Shown: positions 17,011 through 38,042 of the stretch, in pieces | Layout of the letters: each line of letters opens with the position of its first letter | How positions within the stretch are numbered: the first letter of the stretch is position 1 | Sequence record: KC814930 | Direction: 5' to 3' (one strand) | Source of the DNA: Shigella phage SfIV | DNA: 39,758 bases | Translations under genes and position numbers: made by a program | The notes under the pieces: generated by a model | The model's input: the letters and a program-made list of their open reading frames with translations, nothing else | The model's database searches: none | What the model was told of the DNA's origin: nothing

Positions 17011-17661
17011 ATGCATCGTATAGACACGAAAACCGCGCAGAAGGATAAGTTCGGCGCGGGTAAGAACGGTTTTACCCGTGGTAACCCCCAGACTGGCACG
17101 CCTGCCACCGATCTGGATGATGACTACTTTGACATGTTGCAGGAGGAGCTTTGCAGCGTGGTGGAGGCATCCGGTGCCAGCCTGGAGAAGGGGCGGCACG
17201 ATCAGTTGCTTACCGCACTTCGCGCGCTGCTGTTAAGCCGCAAGAATCCGTTTGGCGATATCAAATCGGATGGCACGGTGAAAACGGCTCTCGAAAACCT
17301 TGGTTTGGGAGAAGCAGCTAAAAGGAATGTAGGTACAGGGGCGAATCAGATACCTGATATGAGCCTGTTCGCGTCAAGTAATACCGCAACGGCTGCTGCG
17401 CAAAAATTTCCGTCTGGATTAATTTTACAGTGCGGTCAGTTGAATGGCTCCCCTAATGTATCTTCAACATACGGGATGAGGTTCCCGATGACATTCTCAA
17501 GAGTCCTTGCTGTCACAGTTACATTGAACGTTACTGGCGCGGCTGGGCAGCCGACTGTATCGGCGACAAATGTCCATAACACTGGATTTAATATTACTGT
17601 GTCGCCCGGTTCAGGATATGGTGCATCTTCTGATGCGTATTACATTGCAATGGGATATTAA
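17011..17661 (+). CDS. tail fibre protein (short)
   Basis: 216 aa, immediately followed by a tail-fibre assembly gene; unusually short for a tail fibre. Confidence 0.65.
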
Positions 17662-17665
17662 CGAA

Positions 17666-18085
17666 ATGTCATATTTTTATTCTGCATCGACAAACGGATT
17701 TTATTCGACTGAATTTCACGGCACCAATATTCCTGATGATGCAGTGGAAATCTCGGAATCAGAGTGGAAAACACTGATTAACTCACAGAGTGTAACAAAA
17801 ATGATTACCTGTGGTGAGAACGGTCATCCTGTCATTGTTGACCGTCCTTCTCCAACACCAGAACAATTAGCCTTAATAAATGATGAAAAGAAATCTGCAC
17901 TGATAGCAGAGGCAACGAATGTAATAGCGCCGCTTCAGGATGCGGTTGATTTAGGTATGGCAACAGATGATGAAACGAAACTGTTACTGGCATGGAAAAA
18001 ATATCGCGTGCTATTGATGCGTGTTAATACTTCAACAGCACTCGATATTGAATGGCCTACGCCTCCGGCAGTTCAGGCCAGATGA
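17666..18085 (+). CDS. tail fibre assembly protein (Tfa)
   Basis: ATG at 17666; C-terminus [28 protein letters not shown] is the Tfa signature; N-terminal part ...[14 protein letters not shown] is also typical. Confidence 0.8.
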
Positions 18086-18569
18086 CATCCGGCGCGGTGC
18101 TGGTATCTGTTGCCGTCACCGCGTCAATGTAATCCAGCACAGCGTTAAGGCGGGTTGTTTCTGCCTGCGTCAGTTTACGTCCGGCCTGCAATTTCAGCTG
18201 AATCAGACTGATGGAAGCCATAGCAGCATCAACCAGAGACTGGCGCTGTACTTCTGCTGCACCTACTGCGGCGCTATGCTGTGCCTCAGTATCCGTCACC
18301 CATTTCTCACCATCCCATTTATCATATGGCGTTAACGGGGCGATAGTGGTTGTATTTTCAGGGTAATCACCCAGAGCTGTGATTTCTTTCGATTCTCCTG
18401 TTTCGGTGCTATAAACGTTTTCACCGCGATGGTCTGGCACATATTCCCATGAGTTAAAATCTGCAGAACGGCAAATTGCATAACCAGCTTTATATGAGCC
18501 AGGAGCATCTAAACAGGAATATGCAGGGATACCGACACCCACAGCAAGATATTCAGTTGATGCAGAAAT
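18057..18569 (-). pseudogene. second tail fibre assembly gene, 5'-truncated by IS insertion
   Basis: Minus-strand reading frame ends ...[17 protein letters not shown] (Tfa signature), convergent with the plus-strand tfa; its 5' end runs into the IS3-family element at 18570 and the first ~45 codons of the track ORF are IS-derived. Confidence 0.7.
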
Positions 18570-18588
18570 ATGAATCGCCACAGATAAT

Positions 18589-19401
18589 CTAGACACTTCC
18601 GAGCCGCTGATAATATTGGTTTTCGTATTCAGTTGGTGGCATATGATCACTCGAACCATGCCGACGCTTACTGTTATAAAACATTTCGATGTAATCAAAA
18701 ATATCACCGCGAGCTTCTTCTCGCGTTCCGTAGATCTTTTTCTTTATCCGTTCACGTTTCAGTAGCTGGAAAAAACTTTCTGCGACTGCGTTGTCATGAC
18801 AGTTACCGCGACGGCTCATACTGCCCTCCAGCCCGTGTGATTTCAGGAACGACTGCCACTCATAGCTTGTGTACTGACTGCCTTGATCAGAATGAACCAG
18901 CACCTGCTTTTGAGGATTACGTCGCCACACGGCCATCAGAAGTGCATTCAGGACAATATCCTTTGTCATCCGGGGCTGCATTGACCAGCCAATAACTTTG
19001 CGCGAGAACAGGTCAACAACCACAGCCAGATACAGCCAGCCTTCGTGAGTCCGGATGTAGGTGATGTCCGTTACCCAACGCTCATCCGGTGCTTCCGAGT
19101 TGAACTGCCGCTGGAGCCTGTTGGGCGTCACGATGCTGGTTTCACCCTTACGTGCCCGTGGGCTACGGTACCCGACCTGAGCCCTTATCCCGGCACGCTT
19201 CATCAGTCGCCAGACACGGTTAACTCCGCACTGTTGTCCGGTATCCCGCAGGTCGAGGTGGATCTTGCGATAACCATAAACGCAACCCGACTCCAGCCAG
19301 AACTGCTTTATCAGCCCCGTCAGCCTCAGGTCAGCATGATGCCGCCGTGAATCCGGCTGCTGAAGCCAGGCGTAAAAACCACTCGGATGCACATCCAGCA
19401 C
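18589..19401 (-). CDS. IS3-family transposase OrfB (DDE catalytic domain)
   Basis: 270 aa; its frame is open upstream into the orfA 3' end, as expected for an OrfAB frameshift fusion. Confidence 0.85.
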   Translation of the reverse strand: MLDVHPSGFYAWLQQPDSRRHHADLRLTGLIKQFWLESGCVYGYRKIHLDLRDTGQQCGVNRVWRLMKRAGIRAQVGYRSPRARKGETSIVTPNRLQRQFNSEAPDERWVTDITYIRTHEGWLYLAVVVDLFSRKVIGWSMQPRMTKDIVLNALLMAVWRRNPQKQVLVHSDQGSQYTSYEWQSFLKSHGLEGSMSRRGNCHDNAVAESFFQLLKRERIKKKIYGTREEARGDIFDYIEMFYNSKRRHGSSDHMPPTEYENQYYQRLGSV

Positions 19402-19438
19402 CCGACAAAGCAGTCGGACAGGCCAGCAATGGGTGTTG

Positions 19439-19741
19439 TCACGGATAAAGGCGTACCTCAGTCGGACAGCTTTGCGAAGTACGCCGCTGTAGATTCAATA
19501 TGTCCCGTTCGTCGGTAACCCGCTTCAGCTCTTTCTGGAGGCGTCGGATCTCAGCCTGAGCGTCTGACTGGACTTTATTGGTTGAGGAATCCGGGCCATA
19601 TGCCTTTATCCAGGCATAAAGACTGTGGGTGGTGATACCGAGACGTGTTGCCACGCTGGAAACAGAATGGCCGCGATCAACAACCTGTTTTACCGCTTCA
19701 ATTTTAAACTCTTCGGGATAACGCTTACCGCTCATGGGCAC
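19439..19741 (-). CDS. IS3-family transposase OrfA (HTH)
   Basis: 100-aa ORF, N-terminal HTH-like segment, upstream of orfB within the IS. Confidence 0.8.
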   Translation of the reverse strand: MPMSGKRYPEEFKIEAVKQVVDRGHSVSSVATRLGITTHSLYAWIKAYGPDSSTNKVQSDAQAEIRRLQKELKRVTDERDILNLQRRTSQSCPTEVRLYP

Positions 19742-19904
19742 CTCTCTTTAAGTCATCTTAAATGACTCTGAGGTGTCTGTTAAACCTGTGGCGATTCATT
19801 ATTAACTCTAATTTTAACAATAATTCCAGCCAGTACCCCGTCAGCCAGGTTGTAGTATTGGGCGGTAATTATTCTTACCCGGAAGGGGTTAAGATGACAC
19901 TAGA

Positions 19905-34568: not shown

Positions 34569-34585
34569 TTTTGTGGAGAAATTTG

Positions 34586-34948
34586 ATGCGTGATATTCAG
34601 ATGGTTCTTGAGCGTTGGGGGGGATGGGCTGCTAGTGATAATTCAGGCGTTGACTATTCTCCAATCGCAGCAGGATTTAAAGGGCTTTTACCACAAACAG
34701 GTAAAAACAGACTCTCATGTACTGATGCCGACGGATTAATCATTGAGGGGTGCCTTGCTCGGCTGAAGAAGAAAAAACCTTATGAGCATTCGTTACTAGT
34801 AGCACATTATTTGTATGGTCTTTCTAAGAGAAAAATTGCTAAAGAAAAGAAAAAGGACGAGAAACTTATACGCATTGAGATTAAAATGGCTGAAGGATTT
34901 ATCGAAGGTTGTCTTTCAATGTTGGATATTAGATTAGAAATGGATTGA
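34586..34948 (+). CDS. Q: late antiterminator Q
   Basis: ATG at 34586 with SD ggag; MRDIQMVLERWGGWAA... N-terminus; a late promoter/terminator pair lies downstream. Confidence 0.7.
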   Translation: MRDIQMVLERWGGWAASDNSGVDYSPIAAGFKGLLPQTGKNRLSCTDADGLIIEGCLARLKKKKPYEHSLLVAHYLYGLSKRKIAKEKKKDEKLIRIEIKMAEGFIEGCLSMLDIRLEMD

Positions 34949-34955
34949 AGAAAAC

Positions 34956-34985
34956 AAAAAGGCGGATTTCAATCCGCCTTTTTGT
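34956..34985. terminator. bidirectional rho-independent terminator
   Basis: aaaaaggcggatttcaatccgccttttt: 8-bp stem flanked by A-run and T-run, between the convergent Q and membrane-protein genes. Confidence 0.7.
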
Positions 34986-35240
34986 TTAATGAGTCTATAA
35001 ATTCTTTCGTTTTTTTATTCGCTTCAGCTCTGTGTAATAAGATGCTTTTAAATCTCTGTATTTCGCTGTTTATTGAGCTGATAAAGAAAAAAGAATACAT
35101 TGCAGCAGCAATGCCTCCTCCACAAGCAGATATAAAATATAGATAAACTATCGACTCTCTGGAAATAGCGAACATACCAATTGCTGGTGATGCTGCCAAC
35201 TTACTGATTTAGTGTATGATGGTGTTTTTGAGGTGCTCCA

Positions 35241-35516
35241 GTGGCTTCTGTTTCTATCAGCTGTCCCTCCTGTTCAGCTACTGACGGGGTGGTGCGTAAC
35301 GGCAAAAGCACCGCCGGACATCAGCGCTATCTCTGCTCTCACTGCCGTAAAACATGGCAACTGCAGTTCACTTACACCGCTTCTCAACCCGGTACGCACC
35401 AGAAAATCATTGATATGGCCATGAATGGCGTTGGATGCCGGGCAACAGCCCGCATTATGGGCGTTGGCCTCAACACGATTTTACGTCACTTAAAAAACTC
35501 AGGCCGCAGTCGGTAA
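35241..35516 (+). CDS. insA: IS1 InsA
   Basis: 91 aa, [43 protein letters not shown]... Confidence 0.9.
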
Positions 35517-35938
35517 CCTCGCGCATACAGCCGGGCAGTGACGTCATCGTCTGCGCGGAAATGGACGAACAGTGGGGCTATGTCGGGGCTAAATCGCGCC
35601 AGCGCTGGCTGTTTTACGCGTATGACAGTCTCCGGAAGACGGTTGTTGCGCACGTATTCGGTGAACGCACTATGGCGACGCTGGGGCGTCTTATGAGCCT
35701 GCTGTCACCCTTTGACGTGGTGATATGGATGACGGATGGCTGGCCGCTGTATGAATCCCGCCTGAAGGGAAAGCTGCACGTAATCAGCAAGCGATATACG
35801 CAGCGAATTGAGCGGCATAACCTAAATCTGAGGCAGCACCTGGCACGGCTGGGACGGAAGTCGCTGTCGTTCTCAAAATCGGTGGAGCTGCATGACAAAG
35901 TCATCGGGCATTATCTGAACATAAAACACTATCAATAA
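35435..35938 (+). CDS. insB: IS1 InsB frame (expressed as InsAB' by frameshift)
   Basis: 167-aa ORF overlapping the insA 3' end in the -1 frame. Confidence 0.9.
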
Positions 35939-36283
35939 GTTGGAGTCATTACCCCAATTGCTCCTGAAAAAGCAGCAATAAGATAAAAAAAGATAAGAAA
36001 TCCAAGATGTCTTTTTTTTGCATCAATTATCGGTCGTAATCTTCTTAGTTCATTATCTGATAGTGATGTGTTTTCGTCGGCTTCAGAAACTTTAAAAAAG
36101 GCTGCGATACAATAACTGAAAGGGAATGCTAATAAGGTTATTAATGACCATGGAGTAGATATGCCACTTAAGTCAATTTTTCTAGATGCAAAGTAAAATA
36201 TTGCAAACCCAAAAGCGAAGGCGGATAAGAATCTTATAATAAATTTAAAGAAGCTCATTTCCGCCTCCTGTTGGTTCTAGTTT

Positions 36284-37354
36284 TTAACTTTTACTTCTCC
36301 AGTTTGAACCTTTGAAGTCAGCCATTTGTAAATATAAATCATTTTCATCAATAAGTCCATTGTTATATTGGACGTTTACTTTACCGGATAGTTTTAAATC
36401 ACTGCCTTTAATTATGCCACCACCTTGAAGGTTTATACTAATATCTTCATTGTCTATATTTCTGAGTGAAGTTGCTAAAGTATCGAGTACACGTTGACCA
36501 TCTTTGTTTGTCTTGCGGAAATAGGTTATTTCTAGATTAACTTGTAAATTGGATTCATCAAGAGAATCTTCCAGTTGTAAATTATTAAACCATGCTTCGC
36601 CAAAAGCAGCTTTTATAATATCGCCACCTTTACCAGTTGGCATGAATTTTATTTTCTTAACTTTTTCGACCTGTTCTTTTATTGTTGTGGGGAGGTCGTT
36701 TGTGTTACTTATATTATTTATTTTAACTACATCTTCAGAATCAGAATTTTTGATTGGGATACTGCCGAAATTTATTTTCTTGACTGGACTTTCATGCATT
36801 TTTTTTATGGTGTCTTCAGTTGGTTTATCTTGAAGTACAAGGAAGTCGTCACCATTAAAAATAGTGCTAAATGAATGGATTAACCAATTAAGATGGCTTT
36901 CTATGTCTTTAGTCCTTAGAGCCGGTGATTGGACGATCATCACATGATTATCACGAATCCCAAAGTAAAGTATTGAATCAATAAATTCTCGTGTTATTTT
37001 TTGTTTTTCAGCTTCACTTATTTTTTCGTCTTCGGCTAATTTAATTTGCTTCGATGTTATAGCATTGATGTCATAATAATTGACATCATCAGCGATTGTC
37101 ATAAGTGTTTGGCTTTTACCTTGTTCAAACAAAATAAGTTGCCCGAATAACACTGTCTTGAAAGTGCTGCTGCGGTTAACCACTCTAAATCCACTATTGC
37201 TATCGGAGGGGTTAATCTGTTCTCTTCTTGCGCTAACTTTATAGGCTGCGCCATTTTCAGAAATTATAGATTCTATGATCTGTTGAAGCGTTGCTGTGCA
37301 ATTAGGGATGACTGCACGTTTATATTGAATGACCTTGCTGCGGCTTTCTTTCAT
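36284..37354 (-). CDS. hypothetical 356-aa protein, first gene of AT-rich two-gene module
   Basis: Long ORF with SD aaggaa upstream, very AT-rich, Lys/Asn/Ile-rich, no family or catalytic motif recognised by eye; immediately upstream of the split membrane gene. Confidence 0.6.
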   Translation of the reverse strand: MKESRSKVIQYKRAVIPNCTATLQQIIESIISENGAAYKVSARREQINPSDSNSGFRVVNRSSTFKTVLFGQLILFEQGKSQTLMTIADDVNYYDINAITSKQIKLAEDEKISEAEKQKITREFIDSILYFGIRDNHVMIVQSPALRTKDIESHLNWLIHSFSTIFNGDDFLVLQDKPTEDTIKKMHESPVKKINFGSIPIKNSDSEDVVKINNISNTNDLPTTIKEQVEKVKKIKFMPTGKGGDIIKAAFGEAWFNNLQLEDSLDESNLQVNLEITYFRKTNKDGQRVLDTLATSLRNIDNEDISINLQGGGIIKGSDLKLSGKVNVQYNNGLIDENDLYLQMADFKGSNWRSKS

Positions 37355-37464: not shown

Positions 37465-37510
37465 AAAGTTGAAAAAATCACTAACGCGGTCCGCATTTTC
37501 TAGATTACTG
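37465..37510 (+). promoter_or_regulatory. candidate late promoter (pR'-like)
   Basis: ttgaaa -35-like hexamer and downstream AT-rich -10 candidates about 50 nt upstream of a terminator and 250 nt upstream of the holin gene; exact hexamers uncertain. Confidence 0.3.
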
Positions 37511-37544
37511 TGTTAAGAGTGGTTACTTCGCCACACAGCTTAAA

Positions 37545-37571
37545 CCCGCCGTCGAGCGGGTTTTGTCGTTT
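37545..37571 (+). terminator. rho-independent terminator (tR'-like)
   Basis: aacccgc-cgtcga-gcgggtt followed by ttgtcgttt, upstream of the lysis genes where Q-dependent antitermination acts in lambdoid phages. Confidence 0.5.
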
Positions 37572-37715: not shown

Positions 37716-38042
37716 ATGCCTCATAACCCAAATACTTGGCTGGAGTTGTTCCAGAGCTGGTGGCGTGGAGACACACCGCTGGGCGCAGTGATTATGTCGA
37801 TTGTTATGGCTGGTTTACGTATTGCCTATTTTGGCGGTGGTGGCGGCTGGAAGCGAAAAACACTCGAAATTCTACTCTGTGGCGCTCTGACGCTGACTTT
37901 TGCATCCGCTCTTGAGTATGTCGGATGGCCTAAATCACTATCTGTTGCCATTGGTGGTGGTGTGGGGCTGATCGGTGTTGATGCTATTCGTGGGGCTGCA
38001 ATGCGAGTAATCGGTAATAAGTTTGGTGGCTCTAAGGAGTAA
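37716..38042 (+). CDS. holin
   Basis: 108 aa with hydrophobic segments and charged C-terminus, first gene of the lysis cassette directly before the endolysin. Confidence 0.75.
   Translation: MPHNPNTWLELFQSWWRGDTPLGAVIMSIVMAGLRIAYFGGGGGWKRKTLEILLCGALTLTFASALEYVGWPKSLSVAIGGGVGLIGVDAIRGAAMRVIGNKFGGSKE

Follow-up and report, generated by a model that had tools for sequence, protein, structure and literature searches.

Two lesions in a probable Rex-like gene pair of Shigella phage SfIV: an IS1-split membrane-protein gene and a frameshifted partner

The complete genome of Shigella phage SfIV, a stretch of 39,758 nt that constitutes the whole window analyzed here, carries an IS1 element between two short minus-strand open reading frames (ORFs). 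Are these ORFs two genes or the halves of a single one, what would the interrupted gene have encoded, and why was it lost? The presence of IS1 in SfIV is already published. The accessible part of the 2013 SfIV paper lists orf-47 as IS1 transposase B, treats orfs 47 to 49 as a low-G+C "moron" and gives a wild-type strain as the source of the phage isolate, and it contains no mention of a gene being interrupted by the IS (PMC3851460). What is new here is a corrected reading of the SfIV moron, a second lesion within it and, probably, a Rex-like pair from a large unannotated family. As a whole, the data are best explained, with high probability in our judgement, by a single IS1 event and a later slippage that would have left a Rex-like operon dead at both genes and subject to neutral decay.

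IS1 and the membrane-protein gene that it interrupts

In the lambdoid SfIV genome, the Q antiterminator gene and the lysis genes enclose the two-gene operon, which is oriented antisense. Q (34571..34948, plus strand) forms the left border of this cargo site, and a lambda-family holin gene (37716..38042, plus strand) stands on its right side. The element within the operon is a full-length IS1 of 768 bp (35186..35953, plus strand). Its terminal inverted repeats, at 35186-35208 and 35931-35953, are 23 nt long and imperfect, agreeing at 18 of the 23 positions (GGTGATGCTGCCAACTTACTGAT / GGTAATGACTCCAACTTATTGAT). The insA gene (35241-35516) matched both InsA Pfam domains, Zn_ribbon_InsA and HTH_Tnp_IS1, over their full length, and the insB frame (35435-35938), open to 35938, matched DDE_Tnp_IS1 over Pfam positions 1-131 of 131. 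The A6C motif for -1 frameshifting, AAAAAAC, is present at 35492-35498, and a fused InsAB product of 232 aa was predicted by the gene caller in L003, an assembly with the same IS1-split locus. Identity to the IS1 copies of phages P1 and GER2 was 98.7-99.5%. In its length of ~768 bp, its ~23-bp imperfect inverted repeats, its insA/insB' genes with the A6C site, its 9-bp target duplication and its sequence identity, the SfIV copy differs in nothing from the IS1 of E. coli and Shigella and is a plain member of the family.

The element is flanked by perfect 9-bp repeats, CCAATTGCT, at 35177-35185 and 35954-35962 (sequence read directly, coordinates scripted), and the distance between the two copies is exactly 768 bp. 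Identity between the flanks ends exactly after 9 bp, the next bases being GGTG and CCTG. A duplication of 9 bp is typical of the IS1 family, and with the ends of the element fixed by the inverted repeats, the probability of a chance 9-base flank match is ~4^-9 = 4e-6. A 768-bp IS1 with identical 9-bp flanks was thus present as the original prediction had described it, on the evidence of sequence, inverted repeats, Pfam domains and identity to IS1, and its proposal of a simple transposition is supported by the target duplication. With just one IS1 copy, located within an ORF and bordered by a clean duplication of 9 bp, the SfIV insertion represents one simple IS1 transposition, an event that is routine in itself.

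The ORFs on either side of IS1 lie at 35932..36258 (108 aa) and 34969..35199 (76 aa) on the minus strand, and they had been proposed to be one gene. In-silico deletion of 35186..35962 yielded a single continuous minus-strand ORF of 170 aa. When the restored locus was searched by megablast in 5,426 complete E. coli genomes, two IS-free prophages, in strains CFSAN061762 and RM9088, were found to cover it fully at 99.4-99.6% identity. The restored ORF is 100% identical in protein to WP_049592588.1 and shows zero DNA differences from the gene of both prophages, and RefSeq annotates WP_049592588.1 as one 170-aa coding sequence in the same Q-holin interval. These relatives carry one gene, not two, in agreement with the proposal. 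Among the loci compared, we found no IS-free relative with two separate genes and no differing junctions.

In the membrane gene, the left duplication (35177..35185) spans, on the minus strand, codons A100-I101 and a portion of G102, and at the insertion point, codons A100-I101-G102, the third of the four predicted helices ends. The 5' part of the gene (35954..36258, minus strand) comprises native codons 1-102, with TM1, TM2, the conserved cytoplasmic loop and TM3. It reads into the end of IS1 and stops at 35932, giving the 108-aa product that was deposited as AGY37099.1. In this product TM1-TM3 are kept and six IS-encoded residues are added, and TM4 is severed together with the conserved cytoplasmic tail. 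The 3' part (34969..35185, minus strand) comprises native codons 100-170, with TM4 and the conserved C-terminal cytoplasmic helix that includes F144, R151 and K156; other records carry it as a 76-aa "hypothetical protein" with a TTG start inside IS1. Judged by sequence, the 108-aa and 76-aa "hypothetical proteins" of the databases are halves of one gene. The AF2 model of the intact small protein (mean pLDDT 80) shows four helices and a long cytoplasmic C-terminal extension. The assignment of the interrupted gene to a membrane protein of the module accordingly agrees with a predicted four-helix membrane protein that is always paired with the gene upstream.

The IS-free loci also bear on the origin of the module. 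[quoted passage not shown] The module does look foreign, with ~32% G+C versus ~50% for the phage. This delivery hypothesis is, however, contradicted by the two E. coli prophages (L001 and L002), since they hold both genes at the same Q-holin site, at 99.4-99.6% identity, without any IS. Their origin by precise excision of IS1, which would leave a single copy of the repeat, would be a rare event. The single IS1 copy with its clean duplication inside an ORF is the mark of a simple insertion, and the G+C content of IS1 (~55%) is unlike that of the module. We regard delivery of the neighbors by IS1 as hardly credible. IS1 did not import orf-48 and orf-49; rather, orf-48 was broken by IS1, and orf-49 is frameshifted, as described below.

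A second lesion, and the spread and order of the two

The partner gene (36284..37354, minus strand), for which a RexA fold is predicted, precedes the membrane gene within the operon. It encodes 356 aa in SfIV (gp49, AGY37100.1 / YP_008766913.1) and 361 aa in its intact form. Alignment of SfIV with the IS-free loci revealed an 8-bp gap near 36322. The deletion, at 36322..36330 on the minus strand, changes CCATTTGTGCATTTGTAAAT of the intact alleles to CCATTTGTAAAT in SfIV and removes one unit of a near-perfect 8-bp tandem repeat, a loss that is typical of replication slippage. The frame is shifted after M344, so that the tail HKWLTSKVQTGEVKVKN is converted into ADFKGSNWRSKS and the last 17 codons of the gene are frameshifted; the conserved HKWLxSK tail, including the invariant W347, is gone. 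Every homologue inspected keeps the HKWLxSK tail. W347 is invariant in an alignment of 51 sequences, and among 38 aligned distant members only three positions are invariant, W347 being one of them. Because the HKWL tail is conserved in homologues and W347 is invariant, the frameshift is, by comparison of sequences, derived and damaging. In other S. flexneri alleles the partner is split into 176 and 193 aa, which looks like continued decay.

The insertion is not confined to SfIV. The 108-aa N-terminal fragment is indexed in 276 blocks of a public collection, and the members of its cluster are named almost entirely S. flexneri; many of them are marked "partial" because draft contigs end in the IS. 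An IS1 insertion with the identical right junction and, where a contig extends that far, with the identical left junction and IS occurs in several hundred public assemblies, mostly of S. flexneri. The right junction was identical in all five independent assemblies that were fetched (L003-L007), and in L003 and L004, the two contigs that span the element, the left junction and the IS are identical as well. Since independent assemblies share its junctions, the insertion is no assembly artefact. The intact 170-aa protein was found on 109 contigs named E. coli, and the IS1-split allele was absent from all 5,426 complete E. coli genomes. The module was also absent from the deposited phages of the phage collection, in which only IS1 matched this region. 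Given that the same insertion recurs in several hundred assemblies, it is inherited and not SfIV specific, namely, a single event in an ancestor of a prophage lineage that is now common in S. flexneri.

The distribution of the two lesions also shows their order. In L003 and L006 the partner next to IS1 is still the intact 361-aa form, whereas L004, L005, L007 and SfIV combine IS1 with the 8-bp deletion; the partner gene is intact in all IS-free alleles. As IS1 is found with an intact partner while no IS-free allele has the deletion, parsimony places IS1 first and the 8-bp deletion second, in a sub-lineage that includes SfIV. The insertion had been called probably recent, and this holds in part. 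The gene halves carry no substitutions relative to the intact allele, in line with a young event, but the insertion is common to many S. flexneri assemblies and is older than the deletion in the partner gene.

A two-gene family and its probable Rex-like character

The large protein belongs to a sizeable family. A word-indexed search returned 90 clusters, and an exhaustive profile search with the large-protein family returned 818 representatives at E<=1e-3, typically of 315-360 aa. Pairing with a small membrane protein is without exception, since all 31 loci with downstream sequence carry a co-oriented downstream ORF of 161-225 aa with 3-4 hydrophobic segments within ~50 nt. These 31 loci comprise 28 of the 29 species representatives of the genome scan (the remaining one runs off its contig) and the E. 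coli, Aeromonas and Vibrio loci. The small partners are mutually homologous, with 12-52% identity, and all except the Vibrio partner reach at least 20%. They conserve G17, P46, E70, R72 and R73, the last three in the TM2-TM3 loop, as well as three tail residues, F144, R151 and K156, which lie past the point of IS1 insertion.

The pair is found in several genomic contexts. A sister subfamily with 53% identity, whose proteins have 340 and 168 aa, was seen in E. coli LF82 and in L008, a metagenomic contig of E. coli; 43 of the 5,426 complete E. coli genomes carry this version, with "hypothetical protein" as the annotation of either gene. The order in LF82 is cI-type repressor-340aa-168aa-kil-gam-bet-exo, L008 likewise has the pair directly after a cI-type repressor and before kil-gam-bet-exo, and in L047 too the pair adjoins a cI-type repressor. 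The Aeromonas pairs (L009-L012) follow a P4-type primase, which is probably the context of a satellite element, and in Vibrio, Pseudomonas, Marinobacter and Methylomonas the pair resides on chromosomal islands. The family thus uses several prophage cargo sites: one by the repressor, one in the Q-holin interval and one behind the P4-type primase.

Existing annotation resources say little about the two proteins. PADLOC gave no match for either of them; Pfam returned only a sub-threshold hit to Anthrone_oxy and NCBIfam only one to MAG1210. Both fall into PHROGs families of unknown function (phrog_3482 and phrog_16807). A literature search on the protein accessions found no paper, and Rex is not mentioned in the DefensePredictor paper.

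By structure, the large protein is predicted to have a two-domain RexA/RdgC-like fold, with RexA as the best structural match by a wide margin; the model has a mean pLDDT of 70, which is moderate, and leaves residues 198-274 unmodelled. Neither lambda RexA nor RexB appeared by name among the Foldseek matches to viral models. For the membrane protein, rank 4 among the viral models was a 165-aa protein of phage Sbash (TM 0.57, probability 0.99, E 0.27), a candidate gp31 that we treat as a lead only. The uncultured phages ctylc9 and ctgr818 each appeared in the Foldseek lists of both proteins. At the sequence level, none of 39 family members matched PF15969/DUF4747 in Pfam. In hhalign, comparison with lambda RexA alone and with a 24-member RexA profile gave a probability of ~0.1%, and comparison with lambda RexB gave 0.1%. 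The family profile found nothing among PDB sequences, and phmmer against PDB gave nothing meaningful. These data indicated that, by sequence, the family is not RexA or RexB.

We then compared the module with known systems. In a RexAB-type exclusion system, encoded beside the prophage repressor and expressed in the lysogen, the large subunit dimerizes and binds DNA non-specifically, and superinfecting phage is excluded by the pair via loss of membrane potential. With lambda RexAB (PF15969; PDB 8TWQ) it shares the RexA/RdgC-like fold, in the predicted model, and an adjacent co-oriented gene for a four-helix membrane protein, but not the RexA and RexB sequence families. The large protein is longer than RexA (361 versus 279 aa), and so is the small protein relative to RexB (170 versus 144 aa), with a long conserved cytoplasmic C-terminal helix in addition. 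Lambda rexAB lies in the immunity region, whereas the SfIV module is antisense between Q and the holin gene, away from the repressor; the rexAB position by the repressor is occupied by the sister subfamily in LF82 and L008, and this synteny is a separate line of evidence for the Rex-like reading. The Rex-like systems of actinobacteriophages (Sbash gp30/gp31, CarolAnn gp44/gp43 and Butters gp30/gp31) are close in size, with RexA-like proteins of 337-372 aa versus 361 aa, and each has a 4-TM partner, as does the SfIV module, although the host phylum differs from that of SfIV. In the Rex-like pair gp30/gp31 of Sbash, the conserved central cytoplasmic loop of gp31 is essential, and the substitutions R70A and D73A abolish defence (PMC6426596). 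In the SfIV family, E70, R72 and R73 of the equivalent loop are among the most conserved positions. A DUF4747 motif was reported for Sbash gp30 and RexA, unlike the SfIV family, in which Pfam finds no such match.

For the P. putida system RexABpp (PP_5643/PP_5644), RexApp reaches RexA by HHpred at 98% (PMC12894663), whereas the SfIV family does not reach it by hhalign. The RexABpp termini deduced from the published primers (MHRTAT..., ...VYNKINHSTDV) matched none of 320 proteins or the fetched loci, and RexABpp is probably a different family. Kiwa, a phage-defence cargo composed of KwaA (4-TM) and KwaB (DUF4868), likewise combines a small multi-pass membrane protein with a cytoplasmic protein of ~300 aa. 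Its gene order is opposite, with the membrane gene first. We rejected a Kiwa reading on this opposite order, on the lack of any KwaA or KwaB match of the SfIV module in PADLOC or Pfam, and on the fold match to RexA instead.

Could the module have a role other than defence, such as assisting the adjacent lysis cassette (in lysis timing or as a holin-antiholin accessory), forming a toxin-antitoxin pair or acting as a virulence moron? It adjoins the holin gene, it has no sequence homology to any defence family in PADLOC, Pfam or NCBIfam, and a role in pathogenesis is speculated for the moron in the accessible part of the SfIV paper (PMC3851460). The pair nevertheless moves as a unit to sites unrelated to lysis (the repressor, the P4-type primase and chromosomal islands), the best structural match of its large protein is RexA, and the Q-holin site of other prophages holds TIR and KAP NTPase genes. 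A non-Rex role thus appears unlikely to us; holin-antiholin and toxin-antitoxin readings in particular were rejected on the lysis-unrelated sites and the RexA fold match. By analogy, we infer that the two-gene module is a distant, sequence-unrelated analogue of lambda RexAB, and it is probably best filed as a new Rex-like pair. A wider formulation, to which we give an even chance, would be that of a large unnamed family of RexAB-type abortive-infection systems (at least 818 clusters at 50% identity, mainly in Gammaproteobacteria), having only fold and architecture in common with lambda RexAB and occupying several cargo sites, whose S. flexneri copy is doubly inactivated and whose effector loss is favored in Shigella. 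As a sizeable family that lacks a Pfam or PADLOC model, it offers intact alleles ready for testing the generality of the Rex mechanism.

Proposed mechanism, cause of the loss and the cargo site

If the Rex-like reading holds, the cytoplasmic RexA-fold protein of 361 aa would sense infection, probably via DNA or a phage product, and would activate its 4-TM partner, probably via the conserved TM2-TM3 loop. The activated partner would then depolarize or permeabilize the membrane, leading to cell arrest and abortion of the superinfecting phage. A comparable Rex mechanism has been proposed for lambda, Sbash and P. putida (PMC6426596, PMC12894663). In SfIV the system should be null because membrane partner and sensor both lack conserved C-terminal parts: the channel-like partner is without TM4 and the conserved tail, and the sensor without the helix that bears the invariant Trp. 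The products of orf-48 and orf-49 should not be studied as intact virulence or defence factors in SfIV. The phage would stay viable with the module as dispensable cargo. Both genes are broken in SfIV, which is described as an isolated phage, and this implies that the phage can do without them. A viable infectious phage can keep an IS only in dispensable DNA.

The original prediction had further proposed that the insertion reflects counter-selection of a toxic module, that is, that the intact module is toxic or costly in Shigella. The split allele is indeed found in S. flexneri assemblies and the intact allele is reported from E. coli; the partner gained further lesions, both the 8-bp deletion and the alleles split into 176 and 193 aa; and Rex-type effectors can arrest growth if misactivated (PMC12894663). 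Selection of this kind is nonetheless improbable in our view. All the evidence is of one insertion event, with the same right junction in every fetched assembly and no recurrence, and descent within one prophage lineage accounts for the frequency of the split allele. Later lesions in the partner are, moreover, what relaxed selection after the first loss predicts. Neutral loss explains the data equally well and is the simpler reading, and the proposed counter-selection is thus not supported. IS1 is present in very high copy number in Shigella genomes, those of S. flexneri among them, and it inserts preferentially into AT-rich DNA. Neutral decay in a host rich in IS1 is the most likely cause of the loss of the module.

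The module, at ~32% G+C, is the most AT-rich stretch examined. Between the stops of Q and the membrane gene lies a G+C-rich hairpin (GGCGGAT-TTCA-ATCCGCC, 34953..34985) that is flanked by an A-run and, on the opposite side, by a T-run, and it looks like a putative bidirectional terminator that closes the module. A moron, as an autonomous cargo cassette, would be expected to combine atypical base composition with a promoter and a terminator of its own and to be dispensable for the phage. A consensus scan found no promoter upstream of 37354. Alignment upstream of the holin gene placed the beginning of the sequence common to prophages with other cargo at ~37472; this shared sequence contains a terminator-like hairpin at 37542-37563, and no convincing late promoter candidate was seen in the aligned region. 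Across the SfIV genome, no RNA family was detected by Rfam, and tRNA genes are absent. Elsewhere among E. coli prophages, the Q-holin site is occupied by a TIR-domain gene, by a KAP NTPase gene, or by a DUF6731 gene with two small genes, all of them antisense, and the probable Rex-like pair adds one more cargo type to this hot spot of lambdoid prophages.

Lesions in the two genes of the pair

The RexA-fold partner gene (36284..37354, minus strand) carries a lesion of its own, an 8-bp slippage deletion at 36322-36330 between CATTTGT repeats, by which its final 17 codons are frameshifted and the invariant W347 is lost. This deletion is present in some IS1-bearing relatives and absent from others, indicating that it arose later than the IS1 insertion.

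The RexB-like membrane gene, split by IS1 (35186..35953), has been deposited in public databases as two separate "hypothetical proteins" encoded on the minus strand, one of 76 aa (34969..35199; WP_134798395.1) and the other of 108 aa (35932..36258; AGY37099.1). Many "partial" versions of these halves are also found, since draft contigs break inside the insertion sequence. Across the left end of IS1 lies a promoter-like site (35199..35171, minus strand), recognized by consensus match only. Its TTGGCA falls within IS1 and its TATGTT, with an upstream TG, in the flanking gene; therefore, the site points outward, into the 3′ gene fragment. A transcript from this site would begin past the first usable in-frame ATG.

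The cargo site between Q and the holin gene

A cargo hot spot occupies the interval from 34949 to about 37472, between the Q antiterminator and a conserved stretch upstream of the holin gene. At this position, other E. coli prophages (L015, L016, and L017) carry a TIR-domain gene, a KAP-family NTPase gene, or DUF6731 plus two small genes, and every one of these cargoes has the opposite orientation to Q and the holin gene.

Among prophages whose cargo differs, the block at 37472-37570 is kept. It holds a small GCGGACCGC hairpin and, some 150 bp upstream of the holin gene, a strong hairpin of terminator-like form (37542-37563) with a T-run after it. The block resembles a late-promoter plus tR′-type region, and no promoter could be assigned. 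If this is the late-promoter region, the cargo would be situated upstream of the late promoter, and IS1 would exert no polar effect on the lysis genes.

Sister and possible more divergent forms of the pair

In E. coli LF82 (NC_011993.1, 1178432-1179982) and in the metagenomic E. coli contig L008, the pair is represented by a sister subfamily (340 aa and 168 aa, 53% identity). The order is repressor, pair, kil, gam, bet, and exo, with the sister pair occupying the exact position of rexA-rexB in lambda. It is found in 43 of 5,426 complete E. coli genomes, in which both of its genes are annotated as "hypothetical protein." Two uncultured phages, Siphoviridae sp. ctylc9 and Myoviridae sp. ctgr818, are each among the BFVD structural matches of both the large and the membrane protein. 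These double matches suggest that still more divergent forms of the pair exist.

A second insertion sequence in SfIV

SfIV contains a second insertion sequence, an IS3-family element at about 18571-19798, which is named ISEhe3 in the SfIV paper (PMC3851460). The element has inverted repeats at 18570-18603 and 19766-19799 and encodes OrfB with an rve domain (18589..19401, minus strand); no clean target duplication was seen at its ends. The adjoining tail-fibre-assembly (Caudo_TAP) ORF (18057..18707, minus strand) extends at its 5′ end into the element, and a TAP gene lies opposite on the plus strand (17570..18085). This arrangement may be what is left of a tail-fibre cassette, alternative or invertible, that the insertion sequence has cut.
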